Notes under the pieces: model-generated
What the model saw: the letters and a program-made list of their open reading frames with translations, nothing else
What the model was told of the DNA's origin: nothing
Database searches by the model: none
Origin: Botryllus schlosseri
Lineage: Eukaryota
Direction: 5' to 3'
Assembly (NCBI GenBank): GCA_051294905.1
Contig: CM119371.1
Location: 32,118,001 to 32,182,000 of the forward strand
Length of the DNA stretch: 64,000 bases
Made by a program: the position numbers and the translations under genes
Shown here: one piece after another, positions 2,930 through 60,100 of the stretch
How the letters are laid out: every line of letters begins with the position of its first letter
Numbering within the stretch: position 1 is the stretch's first letter

Positions 2930-3871
2930 TTACAGCGATGTCTTATTGATATTGAGCTCTGGATGACACAAAATCGTCTATAGTTAAACAAAGAGAAAAC
3001 TGAACTGATCATTTTTACGCCAACCAGACGCCCGATCGACCACAATCAATTCACCATCAGATTCGGACCAGACACCATCCAAGCCAAGACCTGCGTACGT
3101 AACCTAGGTATTCACTTTGACGGCATGCTCTCAATGGAAAAACACATCGACTATACATCAAAGATCTGTTTCATGTATATCCACAAGATCAGTCGAATCA
3201 GGAACTACCTATCTGAGGATGCATGCAAAGCCATAATACTGTCGCTGGTGATATCACGGCTTGACTATGGAAATGCTCTGCTTTACGGGGTAAACCAAAA
3301 TTGCATCGACAAGCTACAAAAGATCCAAAACATCGCTGCTCGTTTGGTAACTCGGTCAAGGAAGCGTGATCACGTAACACCGATTCTTTGATCCCTTCAT
3401 TGGTTACCCGTGAAATTTAGGTCTGAATACAAGCTTCTTCTGTACGCCTTCAAATGCATGGAGGGAAGTGCACCAGCGTATATTCGTGAGCTAGTGTCAA
3501 TGTATAATCCCGGAAGAGCGCTACGTTCTCAGTCGCAAAAGCTCTTGTACGTTCCAAGAGTCAGAACATCGACCTACGGCGAGAGAACCTTTTCTTCCTA
3601 GGCCGCCATTCAGTGGAACAATCTTCCAATTTCTATCAGACTATGTGACTCGCTATATGTTTTCAAACGCAAAATCAAGACCGTTTTATTCACACGTGCG
3701 TTCGAACTAGAGTAGTGTTCATTCCGCCCTACAACTATGCACTTCGTCTTTTATACATATCGTTTACTTTAATATTTTATTGCCATTTATGTACAGCGCC
3801 CTAGTGTAGTAATGATATATTGTTATATTCGGCGCTCTATAAATTATTATATTATTATTATTATTATTATA
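2930..3871 (+). mobile_element. 5'-truncated L2/CR1-group LINE (RT C-terminus and 3' UTR), decayed
   Basis: Translates to WMTQNRL*LNKEKTELI...VRNLGIHFD...LVISRLDYGNALLYG...LQKIQNIAARLV...HVTPIL*SLHWLPVKFR...YGERTFS...WNNLP, typical L2-clade ORF2 C-terminal motifs with stops; ends in an (ATT)n tail at 3843-3871. Confidence 0.9.
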
Positions 3872-13589: not shown

Positions 13590-15912
13590 TGACAATGACA
13601 TCACACTGTTTGCTGATGACACCAGCCTATAGTTATACCCGGTAAAAATGTATCTGATGCATTTGACAACATTAACACTAAGCTATCGACAGTGTCAAAA
13701 TGGATGGCATCTAACCAACTTCAGCTCAATGCCTCCAAAACCAAAACTCTTGTGTTTCATACACAAGTCAATAGCAGTGGAATTACAGTAAATAACGCAC
13801 ATCTTGATACACATAAAACTGTTAGATATCTTGGCATTATCATTGATGATAAACCCGGATGGTCTGATCATATCAACAATATAAAAACTAAAATCTCGCG
13901 TAGTGTCGGGGCTCTCTATCGCCTTAAAAATTTAATTCCTCATCAAACTCTCAGATCAGTCTACTATGCCTTAATTCACTGCTATCTTATTTATGGGATC
14001 CTAGTTTGGGGACCTGCTGCGAAAAAACATCTGCAGAAATTGCAAGTCTTGCAAAACCGAGTCATACGAATTCTCTGTCGGAAATCTAGATATGAGAATT
14101 GTAATAGCATGTATCGTAGCGTTGGAATATTGAAAGTGGAAGACGTTTTCAAATTTGAGGTAATGAAATTCATGCATAGCTATCATCAGGGTGAACAGCC
14201 ACTTTATTTTGATAATCTGTTCAAGATACCTTCAGATACCCACCAACATCATACCAGATTTTCTTCTAACTTGTCTCTGTCTGTGCAACACCACTCTACC
14301 AGTCTAGTACAAAATTCAATCAGTTTTATTGGTGTCAATGTTTGGAATAAGCTGCCACCTAATCCCCGCAATTTAGACTCTTGTGCTTTTAAAAAACAAT
14401 GTTTTCATTCTCTTATCTCTAACTACCGCTAAATTGTATTTGTGTTGTATTTCAAATTGGTCCATGATACTGTGTCTTATTTTTCCTATTGTTCGTTGGT
14501 TTATTTTAATTTTATTTTATTTTATTTTTTTTTCATTAGTTATCGTCATCGACTGTGAAAATTGCTCCTGTCCCGGGTGGCTCGGCTCTGAAGACTATGT
14601 CATATCGAGCCTCCCGTCTACCTTGCATGTCGCATTTCACTGTTACATTTTTGGGGTCAAGTGTAGAATACGGCCAGTGCTCCCCATGACCATCACCGAT
14701 CAATGTTTCACATGAACATGTCAAAACTCATAGTTCTTCACATGAACACGTCAAAATAAATTGTTTATATTTTGCCTGTGGAGAGTCGGATATTAGGGTT
14801 GCCGGAGGTGGGACATTAGGGTTGCCGGAGGTGGGTTATTAGGGTTTGGGGGAGGGGGATATTAGGGTTGGGGGATGGGGATATTAGGGTTGGTGGAGGT
14901 GGGATATTAGGGTTGGTGGAGGTGGGATATTAGGGTTAGGGGAGGTGGGATATTAGGGTTAGGGGAGGTGGGATGTTAGGGTTGCCGGAGGGGGGAGATT
15001 AGGGTTAGGGGTATGTTAGGGTTGGGGGTATATTAGGGTAGCCGGAGGGGCTGAGGTTAGGCCATCCCAAGATTAAGGTTGGGGTGATGGATATAGATCT
15101 CCTAACCCTAATATCCCCTCCCCCAACCCTAATATCCCACCTCCGGCCACCCTAATATCCCACCTCCCCTAACCCTAATATCCCACCTCCCCCAACCCTA
15201 ATATTCCACCTCCGCCAACCCTAATATCCCATCTCCGGCAACCCTAATATCCCACCTCCGGCAACCCTAATATCCCACCTCCGGCCACCCTAATATCCCA
15301 CCTTCCCCAACCCTAATATCCCATCTCCGGCAACCCTAATATCCCACCTCCGGCCACCCTAATATCCCACCTTCCCCAACCCTAATATCCCATCTCCGGG
15401 AACCCTAATATCCCCCTCCCCCAACCCTAATATCCCACCTCCGGCAATCCTAATATCCACCTCCCCCAACCCTAATATCCCACCTCCGGCCACCCTAATA
15501 TCCCACCTCCCCTAACCCTAATATACCACCTCCCCCAACCCTAATATTCCACCTCCCCCAACCCTAATATCCCACAACCGGCAACCCTAATATCCCTCCT
15601 CCGGCAACCCTAATATCCCACCTCCGCCAACCCTAATATCCCACCTCCGGCAACCCTAATATTCCCAGCATCCCTGCTCCCCCAACCCTAATAGCCCCTC
15701 CGACAACCCTAATATCCGTCAGTCCGTCACGCCACAGGAAAGAAAAACAATTTATTTTGATGTGTTCATGGGAAGCATTTGTTGGTGTAATGTGAAACAA
15801 TGATCGGTGATGGTCATGGGGATCACTGGCCGTATTCTACACTTGACCCCATTTTTGTAGTGTTATGTTGATATGTAATGTATACGAATAAAGATTCTCT
15901 CTCTCTCTCTCT
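13590..15912 (+). mobile_element. 5'-truncated CR1/L2-group LINE, 3' UTR interrupted by the 14653-15850 element
   Basis: LFADDT RT motif at about 13606, then 246-aa ORF (WMASNQLQLNASKT...YLGIIID...YGILVWG...WNKLP); AATAAA plus (CT)n tail at 15887-15912. Confidence 0.9.
14653..15850. mobile_element. Foldback non-autonomous DNA element with internal inverted 23-bp TTAGGG-containing minisatellite
   Basis: TIR of about 50 bp GGGGTCAAGTGTAGAATACGGCCAGTG...CACTGGCCGTATTCTACACTTGACCCC; 6-bp TSD ATTTTT (14647-14652/15851-15856); (GGGATATTAGGGTTGCCGGAGGT)n at about 14787-15085 and its complement at about 15100-15718. Confidence 0.85.
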
Positions 15913-16329
15913 GACAAGGTCTGTGTCTGACTGATACTGATGGACACTTGGACTCGCAGCACTCGCTTGGTATACATGGCGTTTTTGGTTTGATTGATCT
16001 CTATAGCTTCAGACTATCTTGAATTGCTACGAACCCTTACTTCCCGAACACAAGATGAGATACAATGTCTGTCATGTACCTACATTGAAGTTGAAAGTTG
16101 CGACCTGTTCACATTAGCAGACAGCGCACATTCACTCCCGCGTCAGCATGAGAAAATGATCCTCTCTGTAATATAAACAATCCGTATCCCTTCGGTGGCG
16201 CTACTCATACGCAAATCCACGGTTGACAGATTCGCATAGCGCCATTTGGTTTTGAAAGCTCATTCTCAACACTACTCAACAACACTTCAACACTATTCCT
16301 ATCAAAGTTACAGTGCGGAATTCTTTGTT

Positions 16330-42344: not shown

Positions 42345-42911
42345 CAGGGTTGAAACAAGTCTATTCAAGACTTGTCTCGACTCGAGTCACGATTTTATGA
42401 TGACTCGACTTGACTCGAGTCATTTTCTGAAATTACACAATCTGTGTATTGACTCGACTTGGACTCGAGTCATTCGGCATGACTCGAAACAAATCATATG
42501 ACTCGAGACTCAGACGGTCAAGACCGACATTTCATTGCAGTTTTTGAAGAATAGTTAAGTAACCACAACATCGCGATTTCGTCTATTGGTACTGGTACTT
42601 AAAATTCGACCAGAAACTGCTAAAAGTGAAGAAAATTAGTATGTTATAAATGCGAACCATTCGATATCACCAAACAGAGTTATAAAAAGTGGGTTTAACA
42701 AGGCTTTAACTTAAAACTGAGCAGTCAACACAATGTCTTGGACTCGGACTCGAGTCATAATACCATGAATTGGACTCAACCCTCTGCTCGCTGACTTGGA
42801 ATCGGACTTGACTCGGTGGTGAATTGGAAATGACTCGACTAGACTCGAGTCAAAACTATAAAAGTGAGATTGACTTGTGACTCGGAGCCTTGTGACTTGG
42901 TTACAACCCTG
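42345..42911. mobile_element. hAT-type MITE
   Basis: CAGGGTTG...CAACCCTG; 8-bp TSD GCTAGCAT. Confidence 0.9.
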
Positions 42912-43415
42912 GCTAGCATTCAAACAATATCGCGTCAGCATCCGGATGAATATTTACTCGGAAGAGTGGCAACAATTCAATACAAAGCAAACTGAAATTC
43001 TACGCATATATCGCGTTCCGTTTTGGAAAAATCTTAAATCGGATCCAGAGCTAACAAACTTGAATCATCTTTCGAGTTGCCTGATTCTATATTCGAAAAT
43101 CTAATTCGATTTCGATTCGTATCCAACCGAATCCTCTGTCATTGCCTTTTATAACGAAAAATGCACTGATTCAATTTCCAAGTTTTCGCGAATTCAGTAA
43201 TCTAAAAGTGTGTAGCTATAATTCTAACCAAATCTAGAAGCTGAAAATTTCCTAGCAGTCCAAGCCTTCAGGGGATAATGTGACATGAATTCCGGGTGGG
43301 GATTGCGTCAGTGCAACTATGTCTGGTTACATATTAGCGATGGTACACACGCAATTGACTTACCTTTCTGAATCGTTAATAGCGGCTGTTATCGTTATTG
43401 CGAGGGGCAACGCCC

Positions 43416-46400
43416 GTAGTTAGTATGATCGCTCGCGAACGGCTATTGGTTCTTATGGGTGCACCCGACCGGTGCCGCGAAAACTCGTCCTGAACCGGTG
43501 ACCCTTTCAGACCCCCCTTCCACCCGACCGGTGCCTGGGTTGGTATAGGCATCTCTCGACCGGTAACCCTTTTCGGTATAGGGATCACTCGACCGGTGCC
43601 TCGAAACTCGTCTTGAACCGGTAACCCTTTTCGGTATAGGGATCACTCAACCGGTGCCTCGAAACTCATCTTGAACCGATGACCATTTTCGGTATAGGGA
43701 TCGCTCAACCGGTGTCGTAGTGGTGATTCGTACTTTCGGGTATATGCATCTCTCGCACGGTGTTGAATATGTATCAAGTAAATAGTCACGTGATTGGCTC
43801 TTAGTTAATGTGTATATCCCAAATTATTATATATGACCGATTCGAGTTAATCCTAACGTTTACGGCGAGTGCGACTTTAATATATCGTTATTCTTATGAT
43901 CGCGGTGACATGGTAACGTAGCTGATATAGACATGATAGCGTTACAGGTATAGGGATCGCTCACACGGTTCTACATGAAGACATCATAGTTTAGTCGTGA
44001 CAAATGACTGATCGTGTTCTAAGTCTTTCCTCGCTATTGATTGCTAGCTGAATAATACTTCAGATCGGATTATTCGCACCTTGTATACCACTGTTTCGCA
44101 CCTATAGAATAGTCTGCTGTTCACAGTCGCAACAAGAATCACAAGTATACACATTACACATTCGTTGAATTCATTACTGTGAAATCAAACTCTTCACAAA
44201 AGCACGCACAATCGTATCATTCACTTTTTTACCATCACCCAAAATAATTTAAGTATTCCTTGGCTGAAAATCCTTGAGTTCTTATTATCAAAAATGTTAT
44301 GGTGCGGTGTCGGAATCCATTCGCAGGATGTTCTAAAGGTAAATTCAGATAATCCACCCGCGATCGCTCACAAGATAATACCTAAGACATAACCATCGCT
44401 CGCGACTCGCTGTTACATACATGCCTATCGTTAGCAATGTAATATTTTGGTAATTGGTTTGCCACAGAGCCGGCGTAGATTCGAATATCAACAATAACCG
44501 CGCTCACATACCAACACTTCAAAAACGTGTGAAATAGGTTACAAATCCTACGATCGCTCACAAGATAACACCAAAGACATAGCCATTTCTCGCGTCTTGT
44601 CATTACATACACCCCAATCGCTATAGTGTAATATGTCGATGGTTGTTACTCTTAAGTAATAAGTAATGAATAACAGTACCAGCACAGACCGTGATTCGAA
44701 AACCAACAATTTGACACTTGCACGCGATCGCTATATGTTTTGACGCTTCGAAACAGTCGTTGACTTTGTGTGATAAGAATCATGCGAATATTCAAGCAAT
44801 GTATCAATTGAATGGAATGAAACTTACTACACAGCTCAAGTTGATTCGTATCTGAATGTGTTAATTCGGTACAATTCTAATTAATTTGAGAAATCTTTTC
44901 GTGATCTTTTGATTCGACCGTAATCTGAATATTACTGACACCGACTTTCAGTCACATTGAATTATTCACACATTCCACGCCGCTGTTTTAACAGTTATAG
45001 AATCAATACCAACTATCTCTAACCCGATAATATTCAATCATTTTGGTAATTTACCAACTTTAAATCCATTCGCCGATGTACTAAAGGTAAATCCAAATAA
45101 TCCAAAATAAAATATTTGGACTTTGACATAGTCTGAATTGAAATAGATTGACAAACATGACTACCAACTTTCCCGCAGTCCCATTTCGATATTATATGCA
45201 CATTGATTTGAAACAAGTAATGAAACATTGCAACTCTATTCGCGATCCCGCTTTCCGTTTGTCAAAGAGATATTTTAGCATCTTACCATACTCACAAGAA
45301 TTCTTCACAACATTAACAATTGTTAAAAATCTAGTTTTCACTTCCTTGATTATATCACTACAACTCACAAACTTGAATTAATTCATCCTGGCTGTATTCG
45401 TATGATCGGTCTTTTTTATTCGATTGTAAAGGTCGTTACTACTCTGAAGACAAAGTATTTACTAATCGGTACATATACGATTTGACTTGGACATATTATA
45501 TTTTGAGTATACGAGATTTGAATGTCCGAACAATAACTGAGAATTAATTTATCACAATTAAATCCGTATATTACAGCGTAAAAGATATTGGGGTGTCAGC
45601 AACTCTGTACGGTCGTAGTTACAACCACATTAACTAATCTACCCAGGCAACTCGTCATGATCATTCCTGAAATCAACACAAACACGACCACTGACTTGAG
45701 TTAACCACGAAACAGCATCAAGTTTTAAATCCGCTTGCAGCTGACGGATTATTCGAATGCATCGATGGAGAATATTATTGAACTCGTCGGTATTGTTACT
45801 TCAACAAATTACACCGACTGCGAAAGTTAATATCGAATGGTAAGACTTGATCACATATTTGTTGATCACAGACATGACAAAAAAAAAAACATTACCGAGA
45901 TTTTATAAACTAGTCATATTACTCTACACATCTATCAATATCAAAATGCGAGTCATCCAATTTTTCTACTAAAGTAACATTGCACTTTCGGATTCGGATT
46001 CGGTATAGTCATACAAATTGTATTAAATCCAACATCAAAACAAAAGGAATTTTTTTTAGTTTATTGAAATCAAATCATTCGTCTTCGACTTGTGCTTTTC
46101 TAGATTGCACGCAACAATTCGTTACGAATGAGCTGTAACCAAAGTTAAGAATTCTTTGTGTCCACAGATATAGAAGATGAATATAGCTAACACAATCACG
46201 AATCGACGTTTCAGAGTATTTCACGGATGTAATAAACTTGTTAGTGTCGCCTATCTAAAAGTATGCATGCGTTCGATTTCCATACCGACTGTTGCGATGT
46301 TTAGGATTCGCATACAATGACCAAGAGTGAGGATTTAACATCAATGTCGTTACTGGAGGTATTCACAACAGAGAATCGAAACATTACACAGTGTGAAAAT

Positions 46401-49400
46401 ATATCTTTGATATCAAAGCATTATCCCAAGTACACGATTAATACTCAACTCCGTTCACACTTTCTATAGAACGTGCTAAACGTAAAATTTTACGAGGTTG
46501 CACTCTAAGACTTTGATCATTACAAAAGTAAATTGAATATGTTTGCTCGACGCATTCAATTCAACTAGAAATGTCTAGTGCACAACAATCGTAATATTAA
46601 GGAAGTACTTGCTACACTGTAATTCACTAAACGTGTTTTGCATTGTTGTTCATTTGTAGCATTGATTGATATTGTTTTTTGAACCCTCAAATAATAATTC
46701 CCGACATGAAACCAAACCGCTGAAAGTCGTTACCAACACAAAGAAACACTTTGTACGATGTTTGCCAAATGTACCCTATGGTTAGGTGTACTAGAATTAT
46801 TTGTGTAACACATACACCGACAACGTAATCGAGAATTTTTCCGTTGTCATTCGCTAAAGTAAATGTCATCACAATACTCTGTCACTAAAGATCTTGTATC
46901 TGATTGAATCACCGATAATTAACTCGCTAAATCAAACCATAAGGAAATTTCACTCACTCATCAGATATGAAACAGCGTCGCTTAATCGGTGTAGATCGTT
47001 TTTCTAAATGCAAATCATACCTGACCAACAGAAAACAATTTTCACTCACCTTGTAATGAAACCAATAAACACAGTGGAGTGGTCGAGCTTTACATCATCA
47101 AGCTGTTATTTGTAAATCAAGATTTCGGTAAACTTGTAAATGTATCGTTTAACTAACCAACATTTAGTGATTGTTGAACATACCACTTCGAAATACTGCG
47201 TTGATCGTAATTTCCATCATCGTGATAATCGAAGTACATTTCTTTCGAATTCGTAACAACCGACTATGACATGATAAATTTTTGACAAGTTATGCTTAGA
47301 AGATTGGTTGCATATCGCGAAAAATAATATACCACTCATATTGATACTGTTACTCCATTGATCGATATTTTCAAACGAGTAAAATTTATTACTTGAGTTT
47401 CTCCGCTTAATGTAAATGCAAACTCAGCTGTCTTTCAACATCGCAAAGACATCGATACAAAGTATACAATCAAACGCAACAAGTTTTACTTTTGTAGGTT
47501 GTGTATGGTTATCCTGCATAACTCATTTCTTACCAAAGCCATATGAAATATATTCATGTTACACGAAAATATTCGCTCATGCTACAAACCTGTACAATGA
47601 TTGGTGGTGCTTTCAAACTGTTTCGATACCTCAAGAACTTTATTGTCTGAATGGTTGCTCATGTATCGTAATAATCAAGCAGTTCAACACAGAACTAGTA
47701 TTAACAGAAACACCAGAGTTGTTTACACATAAGTTAGTATGTGTACAGTATACGAATACCATGTGTAAGTCCAGCACAATTGTGGTATCCATACGAGTTT
47801 AGTTAACACAATTTACGACACCGAGGTCGCGTCATCTTTCGTAAGACAACAAACCAAGGCTTCAGGATATGTCCATGTCATAGCAATGAATCAGCTACTC
47901 CAACAACAGAGTGCATATGTTTTCTAGTTACGGTGCTTACATCTTACACACAAATCAATCTACTTTGCTAACGAAAAGGGGTGAGTCATCATATGGTTAT
48001 CCTCACTAGTAAAACATACTATCATACAAAATGGTCGTTATAGTTTGCACACCAACGGTACATCGTACAAGTAACAAGTCTCGAGAATCCAGTTATTCAA
48101 AAAACGTGAAAGTGTTTCTACGCCAAGTCGTTATGTTGACGAAAGCATATATTGTAATATCATGATCGATTTGCATTCGTTGGTCACAAACTGTCACTAC
48201 TCTAAATAATTCTTTTTCACTCAAAGCCTACTTGTCACCATTCGTTTTCATCAAGTACGAGCTCAAGAAACTTACTACGACATGAATTTTTATTTTTATG
48301 TTGTGTAAATAGGTATTAATTAATTCAAGTAACACTATATCAACATCATCGAGTTGCGCGAATAGATTTACATGTGGTCTTGTGGTTTTAATCGAAGTAT
48401 ACAGCACGGTCTAATGTAGAGTCATCTCTACTGTACAGCAACTCGGTAATCGAAATGCATTAAAATTTAAACAACGATCTTGTTTCGTCGCATCAAAAAT
48501 ATGTTTACTATCGCGATACTCTGCACAGGCCGTGTAAATCCTTTTCACACTCGTAATAGTATACCAACAGCTACCGGCGACAACGTTTAACAATACCAAC
48601 AACACTAAACATACGATACCTACCCAAGTAAAATTACCATTTTCACCTAGAGGTCGGTCGTTACCCGAGTAGAAATACCATTGTCCTTTGGAGATTTATC
48701 GTTTACCCAGTGTAACAAACCCCTTTTCCTTTGGAAATATATTTTTTCTCTGGTTAACAAACCTTTTTCACTTGGAAATATATTTTTCCCCGGGTAACAA
48801 ACCTTTTTCCCTGAGCAACAAACCATTTTCACTTGGTGGTCCGTCGTTTACCCGAGTAAAAATATCATTTTCTTTTGGAGATCCGGCGTTTACCCAGTGT
48901 AACAATACATTTTCACTTGGAAAAATACTTTTACCTAGAGTAACTAATCATTTTCTCCTGGGTAACAAACCCTTTTCGTCTGGAAACTATCATTTACCTG
49001 AGTACCAATACCGTTTTCACTTGGAAATCTATCTTTTCCCTGGGTAACAATACCATTTTCGTTTTGAAAACTGACAACCACACCGGTCAATTTGATATTT
49101 TTTGTATATTGTTACAACAGACAGCGACAAAATATACACCAACAACGACTCCGATACATTTGTCTAATCAAATATTCACTTGCTCTGATGCATCCCATCA
49201 AAATCATTGGTTACTCACATACAATAACAATGTGCTGTTGTACATCGACATGTATGTTTCGGAATTGGTGAATAAAGGGGTTTCCGATATGTCCGTGATG
49301 TCCGGGTTCGTGCTTTGGATTTTCCAGAGTCAAAATGTCTGAATAAAACACCTCCTCGACTTTGGTAACTGGTTGATACACGGATAATGGTGTTTGGAAA

Positions 49401-49799
49401 ACGGATGAATTTATGTTCCCCATCGCGCTGACAACATCGGGTTACTTGTGAGTTTCCTCAGGTCTGTTTACTATATTGTGTCTTTACTGGTCAATACATG
49501 TCGCTCCAGTCAGCTGCAACCGGATCACTAATATGAGAAAGTGTGTGGGCCTGATCCGGATATTCACTCATGAACCAACGACCAATATTCAAGTAAACAT
49601 GTTACAGACCGTGTTTTGTCTCCATGAAAAATACCAATGCATACACCATCACATCAAGTACGTCACGATTGTTCACAAGTATTCGCGTAAACGAGGTGTA
49701 CATACAATGTGTCGGTGTACAAACATCATGGAAAACACATTCATGTTCTCAAGTATCATCATGCGACGACTCTGTACATTCAATGTGGGCATAGATGAC
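43416..49799 (+). repeat. Left arm (6384 bp) of giant inverted repeat
   Basis: Mirror of 50786-57168 (coordinate sums 100584/100585). Confidence 0.97.
43468..43715 (+). repeat. Subterminal 58-bp tandem repeats rich in ACCGGT (mirror copy about 56869-57116)
   Basis: ACCGGTAACCCTTTTCGGTATAGGGATCACTCGACCGGTGCCTCGAAACTCGTCTTGA repeated with 58-bp period. Confidence 0.9.
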
Positions 49800-50785
49800 A
49801 CACGACATGATACAATGGACAGTGCATTATGCATACCGATATATTCTCAGTCAAATATGCGAACCATACACAACCATATACCCTGATTTTCGCTGAATAT
49901 CCACAACACCAACAAATCTGTACATTTCTTTTCCCTTGACCTCGACGATAGAGTTGTCATCCCAATGTACCAATCGAGTGTATGGTTCATCAGGTGTAAA
50001 ATCCAAATCAAATGTCACCAAGGTATCGTTTTTCATTTTCAATATTCCCACCGCTGCATCTTGTCTGTGTCGTAAAACCACGGTGTGGGGCCAGAGGAAT
50101 CTATGGAACGTTACGCGTAGTCCCATAATTACTCGTGGATATAGTCAGGTAACGACAACGTTTTCTCAGTGGTCTGCGTGGGTGCACCGTTTCAATACGT
50201 AGCTGGATCAACTAGACCAAAAGTTTCCAACCACGTTTTATAACGACATGTAGAATTACGAGACAGCACCCTCTTGCAGAGTGGTTAACACGAAATCAGT
50301 CTTCAACCCGCAGAGACACACCTTGGATTACATTATCTAATCGTATTCGAACTCGAGATTCACACACACACAGAGTCCCTGTTTACGATTTCAATCCGAA
50401 GTCAGTGCTCACGATGTTTATCTGTAGTCGTTATGTGGGAGTAGCGACGTCTGACATATTCATCGCGTGAAAGATTGATAACGATGGTGATCGCCAAATA
50501 CATTAAAGCAACCGAGGTGAAACACTGTAGCCTCAGCGAAAAAGTTCGCAGGTTAGGACGAACAATACGTGGGGGATTGAGTGAGTTACGCAACCCGATT
50601 TTACTATATGTCGAAGTCTGGATCACGATACAAGTCTACTTGAAAATCCAGACAATCTTGCAAAATCAAGGTGTGAACCCATGAAAGGGTTGTACTCGTG
50701 TGAGATTCATTTTTCACAAGTTGGGTTGAGGCGGTTCATACTAAGACCATGTTACGTCCAAATATGGCTGCTTGCCTGTCTCCAA

Positions 50786-53700
50786 GTCATCTATGCCCAC
50801 ATTGAATGTACAGAGTCGTCGCATGATGATACTTGAGAACATGAATGTGTTTTCCATGATGTTTGTACACCGACACATTGTATGTACACCTCGTTTACGC
50901 GAATACTTGTGAACAATCGTGACGTACTTGATGTGATGGTGTATGCATTGGTATTTTTCATGGAGACAAAACACGGTCTGTAACATGTTTACTTGAATAT
51001 TGGCCGTTGGTTCATGAGTGAATATCCGGATCAGGCCCACACACTTTCTCATATTAGTGATCCGGTTGCAGCTGACTGGAGCGACATGTATTGACCAGTA
51101 AAGACACAATATAGTAAACAGACCTGAGGAAACTCACAAGTAACCCGATGTTGTCAGCGCGATGGGGAACATAAATTCATCCGTTTTCCAAACACCATTA
51201 TCCGTGTATCAACCAGTTACCAAAGTCGAGGAGGTGTTTTATTCAGACATTTTGACTCTGGAAAATCCAAAGCACGAACCCGGACATCACGGACATATCG
51301 GAAACCCCTTTATTCACCAATTCCGAAACATACATGTCGATGTACAACAGCACATTGTTATTGTATGTGAGTAACCAATGATTTTGATGGGATGCATCAG
51401 AGCAAGTGAATATTTGATTAGACAAATGTATCGGAGTCGTTGTTGGTGTATATTTTGTCGCTGTCTGTTGTAACAATATACAAAAAATATCAAATTGACC
51501 GGTGTGGTTGTCAGTTTTCAAAACGAAAATGGTATTGTTACCCAGGGAAAAGATAGATTTCCAAGTGAAAACGGTATTGGTACTCAGGTAAATGATAGTT
51601 TCCAGACGAAAAGGGTTTGTTACCCAGGAGAAAATGATTAGTTACTCTAGGTAAAAGTATTTTTCCAAGTGAAAATGTATTGTTACACTGGGTAAACGCC
51701 GGATCTCCAAAAGAAAATGATATTTTTACTCGGGTAAACGACGGACCACCAAGTGAAAATGGTTTGTTGCTCAGGGAAAAAGGTTTGTTACCCGGGGAAA
51801 AATATATTTCCAAGTGAAAAAGGTTTGTTAACCAGAGAAAAAATATATTTCCAAAGGAAAAGGGGTTTGTTACACTGGGTAAACGATAAATCTCCAAAGG
51901 ACAATGGTATTTCTACTCGGGTAACGACCGACCTCTAGGTGAAAATGGTAATTTTACTTGGGTAGGTATCGTATGTTTAGTGTTGTTGGTATTGTTAAAC
52001 GTTGTCGCCGGTAGCTGTTGGTATACTATTACGAGTGTGAAAAGGATTTACACGGCCTGTGCAGAGTATCGCGATAGTAAACATATTTTTGATGCGACGA
52101 AACAAGATCGTTGTTTAAATTTTAATGCATTTCGATTACCGAGTTGCTGTACAGTAGAGATGACTCTACATTAGACCGTGCTGTATACTTCGATTAAAAC
52201 CACAAGACCACATGTAAATCTATTCGCGCAACTCGATGATGTTGATATAGTGTTACTTGAATTAATTAATACCTATTTACACAACATAAAAATAAAAATT
52301 CATGTCGTAGTAAGTTTCTTGAGCTCGTACTTGATGAAAACGAATGGTGACAAGTAGGCTTTGAGTGAAAAAGAATTATTTAGAGTAGTGACAGTTTGTG
52401 ACCAACGAATGCAAATCGATCATGATATTACAATATATGCTTTCGTCAACATAACGACTTGGCGTAGAAACACTTTCACGTTTTTTGAATAACTGGATTC
52501 TCGAGACTTGTTACTTGTACGATGTACCGTTGGTGTGCAAACTATAACGACCATTTTGTATGATAGTATGTTTTACTAGTGAGGATAACCATATGATGAC
52601 TCACCCCTTTTCGTTAGCAAAGTAGATTGATTTGTGTGTAAGATGTAAGCACCGTAACTAGAAAACATATGCACTCTGTTGTTGGAGTAGCTGATTCATT
52701 GCTATGACATGGACATATCCTGAAGCCTTGGTTTGTTGTCTTACGAAAGATGACGCGACCTCGGTGTCGTAAATTGTGTTAACTAAACTCGTATGGATAC
52801 CACAATTGTGCTGGACTTACACATGGTATTCGTATACTGTACACATACTAACTTATGTGTAAACAACTCTGGTGTTTCTGTTAATACTAGTTCTGTGTTG
52901 AACTACTTGATTATTACGATACATGAGCAACCATTCAGACAATAAAGTTCTTGAGGTATCGAAACAGTTTGAAAGCACCACCAATCATTGTACAGGTTTG
53001 TAGCATGAGCGAATATTTTCGTGTAACATGAATATATTTCATATGGCTTTGGTAAGAAATGAGTTATGCAGGATAACCATACACAACCTACAAAAGTAAA
53101 ACTTGTTGCGTTTGATTGTATACTTTGTATCGATGTCTTTGCGATGTTGAAAGACAGCTGAGTTTGCATTTACATTAAGCGGAGAAACTCAAGTAATAAA
53201 TTTTACTCGTTTGAAAATATCGATCAATGGAGTAACAGTATCAATATGAGTGGTATATTATTTTTCGCGATATGCAACCAATCTTCTAAGCATAACTTGT
53301 CAAAAATTTATCATGTCATAGTCGGTTGTTACGAATTCGAAAGAAATGTACTTCGATTATCACGATGATGGAAATTACGATCAACGCAGTATTTCGAAGT
53401 GGTATGTTCAACAATCACTAAATGTTGGTTAGTTAAACGATACATTTACAAGTTTACCGAAATCTTGATTTACAAATAACAGCTTGATGATGTAAAGCTC
53501 GACCACTCCACTGTGTTTATTGGTTTCATTACAAGGTGAGTGAAAATTGTTTTCTGTTGGTCAGGTATGATTTGCATTTAGAAAAACGATCTACACCGAT
53601 TAAGCGACGCTGTTTCATATCTGATGAGTGAGTGAAATTTCCTTATGGTTTGATTTAGCGAGTTAATTATCGGTGATTCAATCAGATACAAGATCTTTAG

Positions 53701-56700
53701 TGACAGAGTATTGTGATGACATTTACTTTAGCGAATGACAACGGAAAAATTCTCGATTACGTTGTCGGTGTATGTGTTACACAAATAATTCTAGTACACC
53801 TAACCATAGGGTACATTTGGCAAACATCGTACAAAGTGTTTCTTTGTGTTGGTAACGACTTTCAGCGGTTTGGTTTCATGTCGGGAATTATTATTTGAGG
53901 GTTCAAAAAACAATATCAATCAATGCTACAAATGAACAACAATGCAAAACACGTTTAGTGAATTACAGTGTAGCAAGTACTTCCTTAATATTACGATTGT
54001 TGTGCACTAGACATTTCTAGTTGAATTGAATGCGTCGAGCAAACATATTCAATTTACTTTTGTAATGATCAAAGTCTTAGAGTGCAACCTCGTAAAATTT
54101 TACGTTTAGCACGTTCTATAGAAAGTGTGAACGGAGTTGAGTATTAATCGTGTACTTGGGATAATGCTTTGATATCAAAGATATATTTTCACACTGTGTA
54201 ATGTTTCGATTCTCTGTTGTGAATACCTCCAGTAACGACATTGATGTTAAATCCTCACTCTTGGTCATTGTAAGCGAATCCTAAACATCGCAACAGTCGG
54301 TATGGAAATCGAACGCATGCATACTTTTAGATAGGCGACACTAACAAGTTTATTACATCCGTGAAATACTCTGAAACGTCGATTCGTGATTGTGTTAGCT
54401 ATATTCATCTTCTATATCTGTGGACACAAAGAATTCTTAACTTTGGTTACAGCTCATTCGTAACGAATTGTTGCGTGCAATCTAGAAAAGCACAAGTCGA
54501 AGACGAATGATTTGATTTCAATAAACTAAAAAAAATTCCTTTTGTTTTGATGTTGGATTTAATACAATTTGTATGACTATACCGAATCCGAATCCGAAAG
54601 TGCAATGTTACTTTAGTAGAAAAATTGGATGACTCGCATTTTGATATTGATAGATGTGTAGAGTAATATGACTAGTTTATAAAATCTCGGTAATGTTTTT
54701 TTTTTGTCATGTCTGTGATCAACAAATATGTGATCAAGTCTTACCATTCGATATTAACTTTCGCAGTCGGTGTAATTTGTTGAAGTAACAATACCGACGA
54801 GTTCAATAATATTCTCCATCGATGCATTCGAATAATCCGTCAGCTGCAAGCGGATTTAAAACTTGATGCTGTTTCGTGGTTAACTCAAGTCAGTGGTCGT
54901 ATTTGTGTTGATTTCAGGAATGATCATGACGAGTTGCCTGGGTAGATTAGTTAATGTGGTTGTAACTACGACCGTACAGAGTTGCTGACACCCCAATATC
55001 TTTTACGCTGTAATATACGGATTTAATTGTGATAAATTAATTCTCAGTTATTGTTCGGACATTCAAATCTCGTATACTCAAAATATAATATGTCCAAGTC
55101 AAATCGTATATGTACCGATTAGTAAATACTTTGTCTTCAGAGTAGTAACGACCTTTACAATCGAATAAAAAAGACCGATCATACGAATACAGCCAGGATG
55201 AATTAATTCAAGTTTGTGAGTTGTAGTGATATAATCAAGGAAGTGAAAACTAGATTTTTAACAATTGTTAATGTTGTGAAGAATTCTTGTGAGTATGGTA
55301 AGATGCTAAAATATCTCTTTGACAAACGGAAAGCGGGATCGCGAATAGAGTTGCAATGTTTCATTACTTGTTTCAAATCAATGTGCATATAATATCGAAA
55401 TGGGACTGCGGGAAAGTTGGTAGTCATGTTTGTCAATCTATTTCAATTCAGACTATGTCAAAGTCCAAATATTTTATTTTGGATTATTTGGATTTACCTT
55501 TAGTACATCGGCGAATGGATTTAAAGTTGGTAAATTACCAAAATGATTGAATATTATCGGGTTAGAGATAGTTGGTATTGATTCTATAACTGTTAAAACA
55601 GCGGCGTGGAATGTGTGAATAATTCAATGTGACTGAAAGTCGGTGTCAGTAATATTCAGATTACGGTCGAATCAAAAGATCACGAAAAGATTTCTCAAAT
55701 TAATTAGAATTGTACCGAATTAACACATTCAGATACGAATCAACTTGAGCTGTGTAGTAAGTTTCATTCCATTCAATTGATACATTGCTTGAATATTCGC
55801 ATGATTCTTATCACACAAAGTCAACGACTGTTTCGAAGCGTCAAAACATATAGCGATCGCGTGCAAGTGTCAAATTGTTGGTTTTCGAATCACGGTCTGT
55901 GCTGGTACTGTTATTCATTACTTATTACTTAAGAGTAACAACCATCGACATATTACACTATAGCGATTGGGGTGTATGTAATGACAAGACGCGAGAAATG
56001 GCTATGTCTTTGGTGTTATCTTGTGAGCGATCGTAGGATTTGTAACCTATTTCACACGTTTTTGAAGTGTTGGTATGTGAGCGCGGTTATTGTTGATATT
56101 CGAATCTACGCCGGCTCTGTGGCAAACCAATTACCAAAATATTACATTGCTAACGATAGGCATGTATGTAACAGCGAGTCGCGAGCGATGGTTATGTCTT
56201 AGGTATTATCTTGTGAGCGATCGCGGGTGGATTATCTGAATTTACCTTTAGAACATCCTGCGAATGGATTCCGACACCGCACCATAACATTTTTGATAAT
56301 AAGAACTCAAGGATTTTCAGCCAAGGAATACTTGAATTATTTTGGGTGATGGTAAAAAAGTGAATGATACGATTGTGCGTGCTTTTGTGAAGAGTTTGAT
56401 TTCACAGTAATGAATTCAACGAATGTGTAATGTGTATACTTGTGATTCTTGTTGCGACTGTGAACAGCAGACTATTCTATAGGTGCGAAACAGTGGTATA
56501 CAAGGTGCGAATAATCCGATCTGAAGTATTATTCAGCTAGCAATCAATAGCGAGGAAAGACTTAGAACACGATCAGTCATTTGTCACGACTAAACTATGA
56601 TGTCTTCATGTAGAACCGTGTGAGCGATCCCTATACCTGTAACGCTATCATGTCTATATCAGCTACGTTACCATGTCACCGCGATCATAAGAATAACGAT

Positions 56701-57168
56701 ATATTAAAGTCGCACTCGCCGTAAACGTTAGGATTAACTCGAATCGGTCATATATAATAATTTGGGATATACACATTAACTAAGAGCCAATCACGTGACT
56801 ATTTACTTGATACATATTCAACACCGTGCGAGAGATGCATATACCCGAAAGTACGAATCACCACTACGACACCGGTTGAGCGATCCCTATACCGAAAATG
56901 GTCATCGGTTCAAGATGAGTTTCGAGGCACCGGTTGAGTGATCCCTATACCGAAAAGGGTTACCGGTTCAAGACGAGTTTCGAGGCACCGGTCGAGTGAT
57001 CCCTATACCGAAAAGGGTTACCGGTCGAGAGATGCCTATACCAACCCAGGCACCGGTCGGGTGGAAGGGGGGTCTGAAAGGGTCACCGGTTCAGGACGAG
57101 TTTTCGCGGCACCGGTCGGGTGCACCCATAAGAACCAATAGCCGTTCGCGAGCGATCATACTAACTAC
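50786..57168 (-). repeat. Right arm (6383 bp) of giant inverted repeat
   Basis: Mirror of 43416-49799; at least 5 substitutions and one homopolymer indel distinguish the arms. Confidence 0.97.
51525..52174 (+). pseudogene. Decayed type I membrane protein relic: about 14-aa repeat stalk, TM helix, cytoplasmic tail (mirror copy 48411-49060, minus strand)
   Basis: Units of about 42 bp GAAAATGGTATTGTTACCCAGGTAAA...CCAAGT read ENGIVTQGKDRFPS/ENGIGTQVND with frameshifts, then in frame ENGNFTWVGIVCLVLLVLLNVVAGSCWYTITSVKRIY...TLH*. Confidence 0.5.
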
Positions 57169-60100
57169 TAACGCATAATGCGATATCCATTTTACAAGAA
57201 CGTTATACACCACACAATTCGATTATCTCCATACTACCCACTTCTATCGAATAATTATATATACCAACAATTACGATGCGACCTAATTTACGGTGTTATA
57301 CACCCCGTCTACATTCTACAATCAATAATTCAACAGAACGATATCCTTTTCGCCGGGCGAAATTATTCTTGTGTGTACTAATTCCACAATCTTAGAAGAT
57401 GATGTCTCGAACCCAGACTGTAAACTGAAATTGTGTGACAAAACAATAGAGTCTGCATGTGATGGAACAATGGTAGCGAATTTCTTTGGACTCATTCTGT
57501 GTTAGCAATACCTTATACCTGTTTGCATAGTCGAGTCATGGAACTCATTCAGACTGGAATAATGTAAGGCTGTAGCAGCGGTACGAAATTTTGTAAAGTA
57601 GCTGTGCGTACAAATCCGATTGTATTTCGTATCATGTCTATATCAATCAAATCAGGTAATCGTAAATCCAAATCGGGTCAAACTATACCGGTGGTTTTTA
57701 ACCTTATGAGCCCTTTCGCTAATCTGCACGGCTTCAGCGAACCCCCTAATTTTCGACTGATGTAAATAGATATCACATTACAGATCTAGTCATTACTGCA
57801 GCAAACTAGTGAACTAAATGAACTGCGCATCGACAACAGTGTTAAAAGAACGGGACCGTTAAAACATGATTTACACACAAAGCAAAAAGATTATGATGAA
57901 TATTTACTGCAATATCAGAGCGACTTCTGCTGTTTCACTTCAGATACCATAGGTCAGATATGTGAGGCTTCACCATTGAGCCAGACCAGACAAATTATTC
58001 TTTAGAAAAATCCAAATCCGCGCAGAATGGCAGATTTTGAGAACTAGATAATTACAGTTTTCCAATTAGGCAAATTAGAGCGAAAAGCCGGTAGTCTAAT
58101 TCTAATCGGATTTGTGAACTGTTTCTTTGCTTTCATTCTAATTCTATTCTTTTTCTTGAAATGTTCATATGCTCTAATTTTAATTCTAATCCAATTTCGG
58201 GTTTTCCTGTAAAAGCAACAGGAGAACTGTTTACTATACGAAACGAGCCAAGCTTGCTGGTATCGTCAAAGTTATGCGAGAGGCTGACTTATCTATTTCA
58301 TATTCAGATTATATTGCGGAAAATTAGACGTCTCATGACGCAAATAGGCCACCCTAGTACAACAGGCTGATGCCACGAATTCAGTAATTCATATTCTAAT
58401 CCAATTTGTAAAACCTGTGTAGCTATATTTCTATTTATACTTTAACTTGAAAAAATCTTCGTAGCTGACATTCTAGTTGTAATTTAATTTGGAAAAGCTG
58501 AAATTTTTCTAGTTGTTCAAGTCTGCTCATCTCTGCTACTCTACTGAAATGATCATTTGGATTTGGATCTGCATTTGGAAAACCAGGTTTTTGTTCGGAT
58601 TAGCATTGGCTACATCTGCTGACCTCGATTCACTAATATCCTTGAAGGCACCATGCACATGTGCTTTGAGCTCAGCCCGTGAACACAACTACACCAATAA
58701 ACGCATAGCGACACCAAACTAAATCCTAATGTCGATAAATGTCAGTAACCAAGTATTTCCGCTGCACTGACGAAGTACTTCCGCTGTAACCGCAGTAACG
58801 TACTTAAAACGTTTTCCTTTACGTTCGAAATCAAAGCTTTGTGATTTTAGTGCACCAGTCGACATACTATCATTTCCATACTATCTGAACACCTTCTTTC
58901 GTGAGTACAAAATGATATAGTTTATGAATGGATGGATTATGGATTTGCACCCTATCAATGAATTGAATAGTCAATGTACGTAAAATAGGTTTTGTGTCTA
59001 TCATACTCACAGCTACGCAAACAGACAATCGCACCAATCAAACAATCAATCAATTCATTTAGCCATTTATCTCCAGCAATTCTAGCAATGAATTCAATTC
59101 AATACACAGATTCTGCTCCCAGCTGTATTGGAATGCTGGAATTTAACATACCCTAACCACTTAATATTATGTCGTAGTTAGAAATCTATCTTTTACTAAT
59201 AGCATAAATTGTGCTTAGCCTGCTGATCTACATACTCACAAGCTGCCATCATGGCATATTATATACCTCTGTCGCTAGACAAATCACAGAAGCTGGCTGA
59301 ATGGTGACTTACACCGGATGCTTGCAAATGTACATTTACAATGAGACATGAGATATTGTACAACGTAAATCATTGCATATGGCAAAGCATCAGGCTACCA
59401 CTACAGCGTATACGATTGAATTCGCTGACTATTCTTCCCTTCGCCGCTAACCTTTCTGTATGGGTCGATACGGGCAAGTGCTAGGCCGGTATATCGATTT
59501 GTATGCTTCTACTCTATTATATTTAGGATCATTAATCCAAGAGATCCTTACTACGTATTGTAAAGTTGATGTGAGTATTAAATAATACATGGTGCGGTTT
59601 GCCAGTAGGCTATCAAAAATTTAGTGTCGGCTATAGTCAACGTGTATAAACTGAAATACTTTGTCCCTGGCAATAATTCCCACTAAGTCAACTTGTTACA
59701 ATGACAATAATTCCCATACGGACAACATCAAATAGCTATAGCTATATAGACTCATTTGAATGTGAAACTTTAAAACAGTTGCAGATATAGGGCGATAGTG
59801 ATAGGACGATTAGGTGTAACTTTATAATGGACTATACCAGAGGTTCTCAGCCTTTTTGTCTTCGTGGACTCCTTTTGGACCATCACGGACCCCCTCACCT
59901 TTTCGTTCAAATTAAGCTCAGTTATCGAGCAATCGTGATATGTCTTGCGCAAATGTTAACTGTAGGCTAGTGATAAACAGCGACAAAATGAATTTTCATG
60001 AAAATAACATATCATACTATATTAATGTAAAAATTGGGTAGACTTTTTATGTTTCAAAATGAATCCTGAAACTACATTTCATTAAATACGTCGTCGTGTC

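Follow-up and report, generated by a model that had tools for sequence, protein, structure and literature searches.

A family of giant foldback elements with Maverick/Polinton-type ends in the genome of Botryllus schlosseri

Mavericks, also called Polintons, are reportedly self-synthesising virus-like transposons, as set out by Kapitonov and Jurka in 2006 and by Pritham in 2007; protein priming via single-stranded panhandle intermediates, their supposed mode of replication, has to our knowledge never been observed in animals. Sea-urchin TU and Caenorhabditis elegans Tc4 belong to the classical foldback transposons, and the arms of Drosophila FB consist mostly of short tandem subrepeats. In primate Y-chromosome palindromes, arm-to-arm gene conversion homogenises the arms. 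An inverted-repeat structure of adenovirus incomplete-particle DNA is said to have been described by Daniell in 1976.

Vertebrate Mavericks are described with (AGT)2 ends, target site duplications (TSDs) of 6 bp, terminal inverted repeats (TIRs) of 46 to 1447 bp and sizes of 12.7 to 24.6 kb (PMC8097293), and the Polinton model outlines an ssDNA intermediate with a TIR panhandle as origin (PMC4046053). Butterfly polintons are described with ~2-kb TIRs bearing genes, together with polB-less polinton-related insertions (bioRxiv 10.1101/2025.02.07.637071). Galileo, like Drosophila FB, is treated as a classical foldback transposon (PMC3573991). AAV snapback genomes are an example of snap-back defective viral genomes (PMC8235507), and adenovirus incomplete particles are described as carrying left-end DNA, the left end holding the packaging domain (PMC5033970).

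The 64,000-nt stretch of B. schlosseri DNA analysed here (the window) contains a foldback element of 13.8 kb, a length inside the range given above for Mavericks. Like Mavericks, it has (AGT)2-type termini, 6-bp TSDs, terminal inverted repeats, and ends homologous to those of resident autonomous copies. Unlike them, it is without pPolB, integrase, ATPase, protease and capsid genes and has a single orphan gene of 91 aa in its loop; its inverted repeats measure 6.4 kb each, or 93% of the element, against the 46 to 1447 bp described for Mavericks. Butterfly polintons, as described, are comparable in being Polinton-derived mobile units that still insert with unusually long TIRs or without polB. 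However, their TIRs hold second copies of capsid and protease genes, and most of the gene set is retained, whereas the foldback arms lack coding sequence and account for almost the entire element. With a short middle enclosed by inverted arms of great length that are more alike within a copy than between copies, the element recalls the classical foldbacks. Those belong to other superfamilies, with other TSD lengths and arms mostly of short tandem subrepeats, whereas the arms of the Maverick-ended foldback are largely unique sequence and several-fold longer.

Layout of the window copy and its family

The element at 43415-57169 is one genuine member of a highly abundant family of mobile elements. 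Its features, in window positions, are as follows.

43415-57169: complete foldback element, 13,755 nt, two inverted arms and a central loop
43409-43414, no strand: left 6-bp TSD copy, AACGCC, 5/6 identical to the right copy
43415-49799, + strand: left arm, 6385 nt, starting with C
43416-44296, + strand: terminal segment of Maverick origin, comprising a TIR homologue and sequence specific to the left end, 87-94% identity to autonomous Mavericks L040-L043
43521-43714, no strand: subterminal tandem repeats, 58-bp unit in 2.7 copies with an overlapping 33-bp array, common to the Maverick TIR
48698-49069, no strand: inner-arm tandem repeats with 146-bp and 42-bp periods, inside the part of the arm spanning element positions 5200-6200
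49800-50785, no strand: central non-palindromic loop, 986 bp
49851-50126, - strand: 91-aa ORF of the loop, conserved orphan (codons 49854-50126, stop 49851-49853)
50786-57169, - strand: right arm, 6384 nt, inverted copy of the left arm
57170-57175, no strand: right TSD copy, AACGCA

Inverted matches paired 45880-49799 with 50786-54705 and 43416-45888 with 54696-57168, and the arms together account for 12,769 of the 13,755 nt. On exact comparison they are 99.9% rather than 100% identical, differing by five substitutions (at 44250, 45683, 46312, 47680 and 49581) and a 1-nt indel in an A10/A11 run near 45880. The outermost base is also mismatched (43415 C versus A, the complement of T at 57169), the left end reading C followed by GTAGTTAGT and the right end ACTAACTAC followed by T. 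Tandem repeats in the 6.4-kb arm are confined to the two arrays listed. BLASTN of the element against the remaining window, which is itself repeat-rich (157 non-self HSPs), gave no matches. The first-pass annotation had described 6.4-kb inverted arms around a 986-bp spacer, Maverick-like ends flanked by AACGCC and AACGCA, a lack of repeat families from the rest of the window and ~93% self-complementarity, all of which were reproduced. The 6-bp duplication of Maverick type that it had read from these flanks matches at five of six positions here and is perfect in nearly all other copies checked.

A search for further copies recovered 12 in full (nine plus three nested). All 12 share the foldback form of the window copy, in which a short middle is enclosed by inverted arms, here of 4.3 to 6.4 kb, that account for most of the length. 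Loops homologous to that of the window copy (888 to 976 bp) were present in 7/9 other copies, and the arm segment spanning element positions 5200-6200 could be aligned in 10/10 other copy groups. Across the genome, the terminal motif GTAGT-N6-GATCGNTCG occurred 978 times forward and 969 times in reverse (reversed control, 2 and 4). AGTAGT begins 1936 of these 1947 termini; the right end of the window copy conforms, and in its left end C replaces the first A. A 20-mer from the inner arm was found 792 times forward and 799 times in reverse, mostly as convergent pairs ~1.9 to 2.0 kb apart (~800 pairs genome-wide), and a 20-mer from the loop 284 and 333 times; controls gave 0. Copy number is put at about 800 to 1200 (at least ~800 from word counts), or ~2% of the genome. 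Because the architecture recurs genome-wide, the foldback structure lies far beyond chance.

Maverick ends, autonomous partners and the loop gene

Two autonomous partners, C1:5923771-5942033 and C13:23253664-23269681, carry the termini of the foldback family, 6-bp TSDs (GCCGAG and GGCGTT, respectively) and TIRs of ~0.4 to 0.8 kb. The C1 partner, the one of the two in which open frames were catalogued and scanned, has a 1214-aa pPolB (PF03175; E value, 5.5e-8), an rve+chromo integrase and an ATPase-like ORF; the C13 partner could be aligned to it at 79 to 96% over most of its length and contains a pPolB match. No stop codon interrupts 34 of the 38 pPolB copies scored. Positions 2-882 of the window arm share 87 to 94% identity with the left end of the C13 partner, the match to the C1 partner being 89% over 335 bp, and positions 715-882 match left Maverick ends only. 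All 12 foldback copies compared have a Maverick-end match (82 to 98% identity to Maverick TIRs), the homologous outer segment spanning ~0.4 to 0.9 kb across copies and ~0.9 kb in the window arm. In 5 of these 12 (the window copy and four others) it reaches left-specific sequence beyond the TIR, in both arms.

The remaining ~5.5 kb of the arm and the loop had no match to the two autonomous elements compared. A Pfam scan of 62 ORFs of at least 45 aa from the arm and loop identified no families, including no transposase domain, and Maverick ORFs, used as TBLASTN queries, had no coding match in the element; by these searches, the Maverick replication/integration genes and those of the capsid module (major and minor capsid proteins, packaging ATPase and protease) are not in the element. 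Its termini, 6-bp TSDs and homology to the ends of resident autonomous Mavericks support the first-pass reading that the element is mobile and non-autonomous and ends like a Maverick/Polinton. The autonomous partner which that reading called for was also located, as intact Mavericks with pPolB, integrase and ATPase, matching termini and ~0.9 kb of end homology reside in the same genome. The accompanying proposal, that one 6.4-kb end of a parent had been copied back, may hold in part. Left-end-specific sequence in both arms, as seen in the five copies, is what copy-back of one end would predict, but only ~0.9 kb is recognisably Maverick; as no Maverick origin could be detected for the ~5.5 kb of arm or for the loop, copy-back of an end would explain the outer 0.9 kb only.

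The loop had been described as a spacer, and the parent element as having lost its core genes. The loop is more than a passive spacer, and the element is not devoid of genes, as the loop encodes a conserved orphan protein of 91 aa. Its ORF, the 3′ end of which lies 52 bp from the left arm, is open in 9/11 other copies with 54 to 97% amino acid identity and conservation of the Met and the end; of the 150 highest-scoring matches among 1200 genomic candidates, 148 are free of stops. Between subfamilies, its dN/dS is 0.30, versus 0.69 and 1.52 in the other two frames (dS, ~1.0). At the level of codon comparison, the ORF is shown to be under purifying selection, and it is the single conserved gene of the element; no further ORF of at least 75 aa is open in diverged copies. 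No homologue of the predicted protein was found outside its own family, and its structure model is poor (pLDDT, 46.8). A weak resemblance of the ORF to an ATPase (BLASTP E value, 5e-5) found no support in profile comparison (probability, 0.1%). The dS of ~1 of the loop gene marks the foldback architecture as old, and this form has been passed down through deeply diverged subfamilies. The idea that the foldback arose at the window copy itself is rejected, this old architecture being common to ~800 to 1200 copies.

Proposed origin and wider meaning

A real Maverick-dependent foldback family carrying its own gene is very probable, and the explanation as a whole, in which this giant foldback family is a satellite or non-autonomous derivative dependent on Mavericks/Polintons, is likely. 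Each arm comprises a Maverick terminus ((AGT)2-type, with 58-bp subterminal repeats) followed by ~5.5 kb of fast-evolving non-coding DNA. The founding foldback may have formed by copy-back of one (left) Maverick end through a template switch. Copies would then be made from the common ends by the protein-primed polymerase of Mavericks and inserted in trans by their integrase. Among the read and contig joints examined, none matched an empty site, and no extrachromosomal form was seen. During copying, the displaced single strand could snap back into a 6.4-kb hairpin in which arm-to-arm mismatches are corrected, an analogue of adenovirus ITR panhandle correction, and such correction would keep the arms near-identical along each lineage. 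Chromosomal gene conversion between arms may make an additional contribution.

As proposed, the element would resemble snap-back and copy-back genomes in its inverted-duplicate end, two origins and dependence on a helper; the left end of adenovirus, as described, holds the packaging domain, and the foldback arms hold Maverick left-end-specific sequence. Snap-back genomes are transient by-products, whereas the foldback is a germline-integrated, long-lived lineage of about a thousand copies with its own selected gene, and most of its arm is not helper-derived. It is rather unlikely, if conceivable, that the family lives as a genuine satellite of an endogenous Maverick virus, with a self-complementary genome, Maverick origins and Maverick capsids. 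The ~5.5-kb arms would then be mainly length-conserved stuffer, the hairpin would reset the arms to identity in each replication cycle, and the 91-aa protein, as a factor of the satellite, would exploit or redirect the helper machinery. If true, such a Maverick-packaged satellite would give animals their first equivalent of the helper-dependent satellites, among them virophage-associated and phage-inducible elements.

The family could serve as a natural reporter of the Maverick cycle, with about a thousand Maverick-end-dependent, 93% self-complementary copies whose arms stay in lock-step over deep time, and in which the mode of arm homogenisation, the narrow length range and insertion polymorphism are measurable. 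As the family illustrates, a parasite of a virus-like transposon can outnumber its helper, occupy ~2% of a genome and keep its own gene; the 91-aa protein is a candidate for some new function, in exploiting the helper or in binding DNA ends. The family also matters for genome annotation, its large body of near-perfect palindromes being bound to confuse assemblers and repeat classifiers.

Arm identity and competing readings

Perfect 6-bp TSDs flanked 8/8 other pairs examined first, 21/21 pairs of 12.9 to 15.5 kb on chromosome C1 and 28/30 of all chromosome C1 pairs checked. Two of three nested copies also had perfect TSDs; the third had none. Pooled arm-to-arm substitutions numbered 152 in 91,743 aligned nt (0.17%; range, 0.04 to 0.54%; 13 copies), so that the arms within each copy are ~99.8% identical. 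Among the 36 to 40 candidates scored of 3276 to 4527, the closest relatives of three copies were only 96%, 98% and 98% identical. Like Y palindromes, the element combines near-perfect arms (~99.9%) with an old structure; Y palindromes are fixed at a single locus, whereas the foldback is a dispersed mobile family with TSDs.

We infer the cause of this within-copy identity, and homogenisation chiefly in the replication or transposition cycle has a nearly even chance of being correct. An explanation in which the same Maverick-dependent element has its arms kept alike mainly in the chromosome, by gene conversion or fold-back repair between close inverted repeats, is somewhat doubtful, and homogenisation chiefly in situ is put no higher. 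The window copy, 4% from its nearest scored relative yet with arms only 0.08% apart, is in keeping with in-situ upkeep. So is the nested copy without a TSD (C1:16768420-16810257), whose arms have 4 differences in ~6.1 kb, versus 10 in ~6.6 kb in the younger element inserted into it. Its palindrome extends at least 2.5 kb into flanks of ordinary dispersed repeats (inverted identity, 100% over 500 bp and 99.8% over the next 2000 bp); with the missing TSD, this suggests that a palindrome formed or was converted in the chromosome, or that the locus is misassembled. Short, distant inverted ends are less uniform than the foldback arms (TIR identity, 99.5% and 96% in autonomous elements and 98.4% in a 3.3-kb derivative), and panhandle correction alone is therefore no guarantee of identity. 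Against upkeep in the chromosome, one-sided insertions persist in arms of a C9 copy and the nest, neither copied nor erased. Moreover, only 1 mismatch was found in 192 TSD sites; with TSDs almost undecayed, the copies look young, and extra in-situ homogenisation is not needed. This suggests that they are about as young as their 0.17% arm divergence implies.

Other readings concern the nature of the family. It is improbable that the family's main role is to supply long hairpin RNA, processed into small RNAs that silence Mavericks and lead the host to tolerate or favour the element, which would then be more than a parasite. A read-through transcript would form near-perfect 6.4-kb dsRNA including the Maverick end sequence of the arms, but this common segment is non-coding. 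The few RNA reads on both arm strands are of minimal depth (at most ~3) and not assignable to one copy, and a selfish replicator better accounts for the perfect TSDs and for deep lineages that are under selection and have an ORF to themselves. Descent from a foldback transposon of a different superfamily (P/Galileo-like, FB-like or another DDE type), resembling Mavericks in its ends only, is very improbable. The long arms do recall classical foldbacks and none of the element's own genes links it to Mavericks; however, ~880 bp share 87 to 94% identity with the ends of two pPolB/integrase-bearing elements, the 21-nt terminal motif and 6-bp TSD length are common to both, and the 62 ORFs scanned contain no transposase domain. 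An assembly artefact, whether from chimeric foldback reads or from an inverted duplication that was collapsed, can scarcely be credited. Reads and contigs examined do not cross the structure, the contigs being too short, and the palindromic flank at one related locus is suspicious, but the ~800 convergent word pairs and the 13/13 full copies of the same architecture, each with its own sequence, its own TSD in all but the one nested case, and arm differences that are copy-specific substitutions, refute it.

Architecture and abundance of the foldback family

The two inverted stretches around a 986-bp middle that the first-pass annotation had described were recovered at the same positions, and the element divides into the following features.

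43415-49799, left arm
49800-50785, loop
49854-50126, minus strand, 91-amino-acid open reading frame (ORF) within the loop
50786-57169, right arm

Exact alignment showed that the arms (6385 and 6384 nt) differ by 5 substitutions and by 1 nt in the length of an A10/A11 run, giving 99.9% rather than 100% identity. The outermost base was mismatched, with a C at 43415 in place of the A expected from the opposite arm. Both the ends and the hexamers flanking them (AACGCC and AACGCA) matched their earlier description; the hexamers form an imperfect target-site duplication (TSD), identical at 5/6 positions and adjoining the aberrant first base, and two neighboring A-to-C changes would account for both anomalies. 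The arms carried no long ORF. Comparison of the element with the remaining window returned 0 hits, against 157 non-self HSPs elsewhere, in agreement with the earlier remark that no MITE or LINE family from the rest of the window was noticed inside it. What had been observed on this copy is confirmed, and its interpretation is partly supported. At some distance from the element, window positions 15001-16000 stood out locally in composition, with a GC content of 0.51 versus ∼0.39 around them and a GC skew of −0.45.

The BLASTN search with the terminal 400 bp that had been proposed for finding other copies uncovered a large family with 6-bp TSDs. Many matches were found in the 495.5-Mb assembly (58 matches listed; 40 of 1546 candidates scored), mostly as inverted pairs 10.8 to 20.3 kb apart. 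Nine further pairs were examined over their full length and all nine were foldbacks, with arms of 4.3 to 6.4 kb; the same plan was seen in three more copies (inner, middle, and outer), one nested within another, at C1:16768420-16810257. The terminal motif GTAGT-N6-GATCGNTCG occurred 978 times in forward and 969 times in reverse orientation (reversed control, 2 and 4 times), and A preceded 1936/1947 motif-bearing termini, so that the family start reads AGTAGT. An inner-arm 20-mer (≤1 mismatch) was found 792 and 799 times, mostly in convergent pairs 1.9 to 2.0 kb apart, and a loop 20-mer 284 and 333 times (control, 0 for each). At an estimated minimum of 800 copies of ∼13.9 kb, the family would account for roughly 2% of the assembly's sequence. 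A very large family of the same architecture throughout the genome rules out an artifact. At C3:30393510-30429926, C8:27585793-27619447, and C6:19121268-19140053, foldback arms were regularly spaced, several in the same orientation, as though entire copies had been duplicated locally, in tandem or as segments.

Perfect 6-bp TSDs flanked 8/8 further foldback pairs. Among 30 pairs followed in positional order on chromosome C1, perfect TSDs were seen in 28, one had a single mismatch, and one was evidently no pair. Despite heavy turnover of arm sequence, 21 of these 30 spanned 12.9 to 15.5 kb (mean, 13.9 kb), all 21 with perfect TSDs. This narrow size range would fit a constraint on length, for example by packaging, although not a strict one, since perfect TSDs also flanked pairs spanning 3.3, 6.6, and 9.8 kb. 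The 3.3-kb element (C1:19317205-19320506) had a perfect TSD, TTCGTA, and 368-bp terminal inverted repeats (TIRs) that were 98.4% identical. It was considered as a mini-foldback and rejected, as its ∼2.5 kb of foldback sequence comes from one arm and has one orientation, and the loop ORF is missing; the element is an internal-deletion derivative that retains one arm. The deletion may have followed insertion, and the perfect TSD is no proof that the short form moves.

Maverick ends, autonomous partners, and related systems

Two elements whose termini match those of the foldback family were identified on C1 and C13. The C1 element (C1:5923771-5942033; 18.3 kb) carried the terminal motif; its TSD was 6 bp long (GCCGAG) and its TIRs measured ∼0.4 to 0.8 kb. 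Its open frames encoded a 1214-amino-acid polymerase (PF03175; E value, 5.5e−8), an integrase with rve and chromodomain, and an A32-like ATPase that fell below Pfam cutoffs; four of its eight long ORFs had no Pfam family. The C13 element (C13:23253664-23269681; 16.0 kb; TSD, GGCGTT) was similar to it, and both are apparently intact autonomous Mavericks. The published hallmarks of vertebrate Mavericks are (AGT)2 ends, 6-bp TSDs, TIRs of 46 to 1447 bp, and sizes of 12.7 to 24.6 kb (PMC8097293). The C1 Maverick has an extra 2.9-kb segment missing from that on C13, and within it a 236-amino-acid ORF (L040:2448-3158, in the coordinates of the C1 Maverick locus; minus strand) with a CCHC zinc-knuckle-like motif and no Pfam match. 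When the genome was searched with the polymerase protein, 38 of 437 candidates were scored; all 38 were 92 to 100% identical and 34 were stop-free, so intact helpers are plentiful. In a pattern shared with the foldback copies, the autonomous copies have open genes and yet differ by 5 to 8% in protein sequence.

Positions 2 to 882 of the window arm were 87 to 94% identical to the C13 Maverick, and the match over 715 to 882 was confined to the left ends of both Mavericks, beyond their TIRs. All 12 foldback copies compared matched Maverick ends, five of them into the left-specific part. Shared termini, 6-bp TSDs, end homology, and the polymerase and integrase frames on C1 together support the first-pass reading of Maverick-like ends and place an autonomous partner in the same genome. 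For the proposal that one Maverick end had been copied back, the left-specific sequence in 5/12 copies is favorable; the rest of the arm lends it nothing, as from position 883 inward no match was found by BLASTN or by TBLASTN with the full set of Maverick ORFs.

The foldback differs from an autonomous Maverick in having no polymerase, integrase, or capsid genes, which places it outside that definition. Judged by its sequence, it agrees at every point that can be tested with a Maverick-mobilized derivative, which it would represent. It belongs to the same structural class as classical foldback families, but where their arms consist of subrepeats, those of this element are made of unique sequence and exceed them several-fold in length. 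The likeness to snap-back defective viral genomes lies in what may be one helper end carried twice: incomplete adenovirus particles are described as holding left-end DNA, the site of the packaging domain (PMC5033970), and snapback genomes of AAV offer a further parallel (PMC8235507). Unlike these, the foldback family is heritable, ancient, and present in roughly a thousand copies, with a selected gene of its own. Polintons of butterflies whose 2-kb TIRs carry genes, and polinton insertions lacking polB, appear in a preprint (bioRxiv 10.1101/2025.02.07.637071). Full-text literature searches turned up no account of a non-autonomous Maverick/Polinton in foldback or snap-back form. The family bears on Maverick replication and on how Mavericks become parasitized, and is of considerable interest in both respects.

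A conserved gene in the loop

The view of the middle segment as a spacer without genes did not hold. The loop ORF encodes 91 amino acids from a conserved Met, and 52 bp separate its stop codon from the left arm. The ORF was identified in 11/11 other loops examined, open in nine and interrupted by one stop in each of the remaining two, at 54 to 97% identity to the window copy; the overlapping plus-strand frame contained a stop in 8/11 matches. Between the two main subfamilies, dN was 0.30 and dS 0.99, a ratio of 0.30, compared with 0.69 and 1.52 for the two other frames, and dN/dS inside subfamilies was mostly 0.1 to 0.5. All 91 codons were open in 148 of the best 150 of 1200 genomic candidates. 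In 7/7 copies checked, the ORF pointed toward the nearer arm and ended 52 to 126 bp from it.

No other ORF of ≥75 amino acids stayed open in diverged copies. Pfam returned 0 matches for the 62 ORFs of ≥45 amino acids in arm plus loop, and this sequence held no Rfam family and no tRNA. Three short arm ORFs (47601-47729, 47769-47924, and 48415-48534) were rejected as genes because of frame shifts between copies and are instead conserved noncoding blocks.

An HMM of the loop protein searched against 1.84 billion representatives recovered one 91-amino-acid family member, a spurious WD40 protein, and nothing else. No relatives were found in Pfam, PHROGs, PDB sequences, or the ESM Atlas, nor in viral or metagenome contigs, and by these searches the protein is an orphan. 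Its AlphaFold model was all-beta and of low confidence (pLDDT, 46.8). The loop ORF gave a BLASTP match to the Maverick packaging ATPase (E value, 5e−5), and 4/10 ORFs gave TBLASTN matches (E values, 5e−4 to 5e−3). Origin as a truncated packaging ATPase found no support and was set aside, given a profile-profile probability of 0.1% and the all-beta model.

Arm identity and the window locus in public sequencing runs

Arms of different copies were 81 to 96% identical over the alignable 1.4 to 5.4 kb. The blocks common to nearly all copies were the outer 400 bp, positions 4200 to 4600 and 5200 to 6200, and the loop portion containing the ORF. Seven of nine other copies had homologous loops of 888 to 976 bp, and dS of the loop gene between subfamilies was ∼1; therefore the foldback plan is ancient and inherited across subfamilies, and did not originate at the window locus. 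Inside each of 13 copies the arms differed by 0.04 to 0.54%, and the pooled divergence was 152 substitutions per 91,743 aligned nt (0.17%), a figure in which a few HSPs are double-counted in three copies. Individual copies look young, as pooled TSD sites carried 1 mismatch in 192 (0.5%; upper 95% bound, near 2.5%). The nearest relative of the window copy was 96% identical to it, and two other copies had nearest relatives at 98% (36 to 40 of 3276 to 4527 candidates scored). Similarity was mosaic, with a fall from 98% to 85% within one arm, and lineages may therefore have recombined with one another. The simplest reading is that many long-lived lineages exist whose insertions turn over rapidly; arm identity would therefore be restored along each lineage.

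Two processes could restore it. The arms may be kept identical mainly at the replication stage, a reading we hold tentatively. Adenovirus ITRs are corrected through panhandles. In protein-primed strand-displacement replication, the displaced foldback strand, 93% self-complementary, would snap back into a 6.4-kb hairpin; differences between arms would then lie in heteroduplex, open to repair, and the duplex end of the hairpin would be a normal origin. Such a process would extend the panhandle model put forward for Polintons (PMC4046053). It is favored by TSDs that have not decayed and by one-sided arm insertions that were neither erased nor copied. Arm-to-arm gene conversion or fold-back repair in the chromosome is somewhat less likely as the main cause, and the evidence for it comes from the nested copies. 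There, the inner and middle copies had perfect TSDs (AATGTG and AATACC), and the outer copy had none; its flanks, made of ordinary dispersed repeats, were instead mutually inverted for at least 2.5 kb (100% identity over 500 bp and 99.8% over the next 2 kb; C1:16765921-16812756). The arms of the outer copy also showed 4 differences, compared with 10 in the younger element inserted into it. However, this locus could be a misassembly, and the palindromic flanks reflect either that or chromosomal palindrome extension.

Public runs under the Botryllus schlosseri label were aligned to window positions 42400-58200 as Logan contigs, the longest piece of which (<0.5 kb) was below arm length. No empty-site joint was present among 15 of 455 joints listed. 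RNA depth at the element was at most ∼3 and was ambiguous within the arms. In run X5, which comes from another sample, a 442-nt contig matched the right flank at 57176-57543, with 79 further letters that did not enter the element; the match ended at 57176, the first base past the TSD, and the contig is possibly an empty allele of the window insertion. At 42400-42926, word depth was very high in all DNA runs and RNA depth was ∼27 on each strand, the highest in 42400-58200; the sequence there, immediately left of the insertion, is an element both highly repeated and transcribed.
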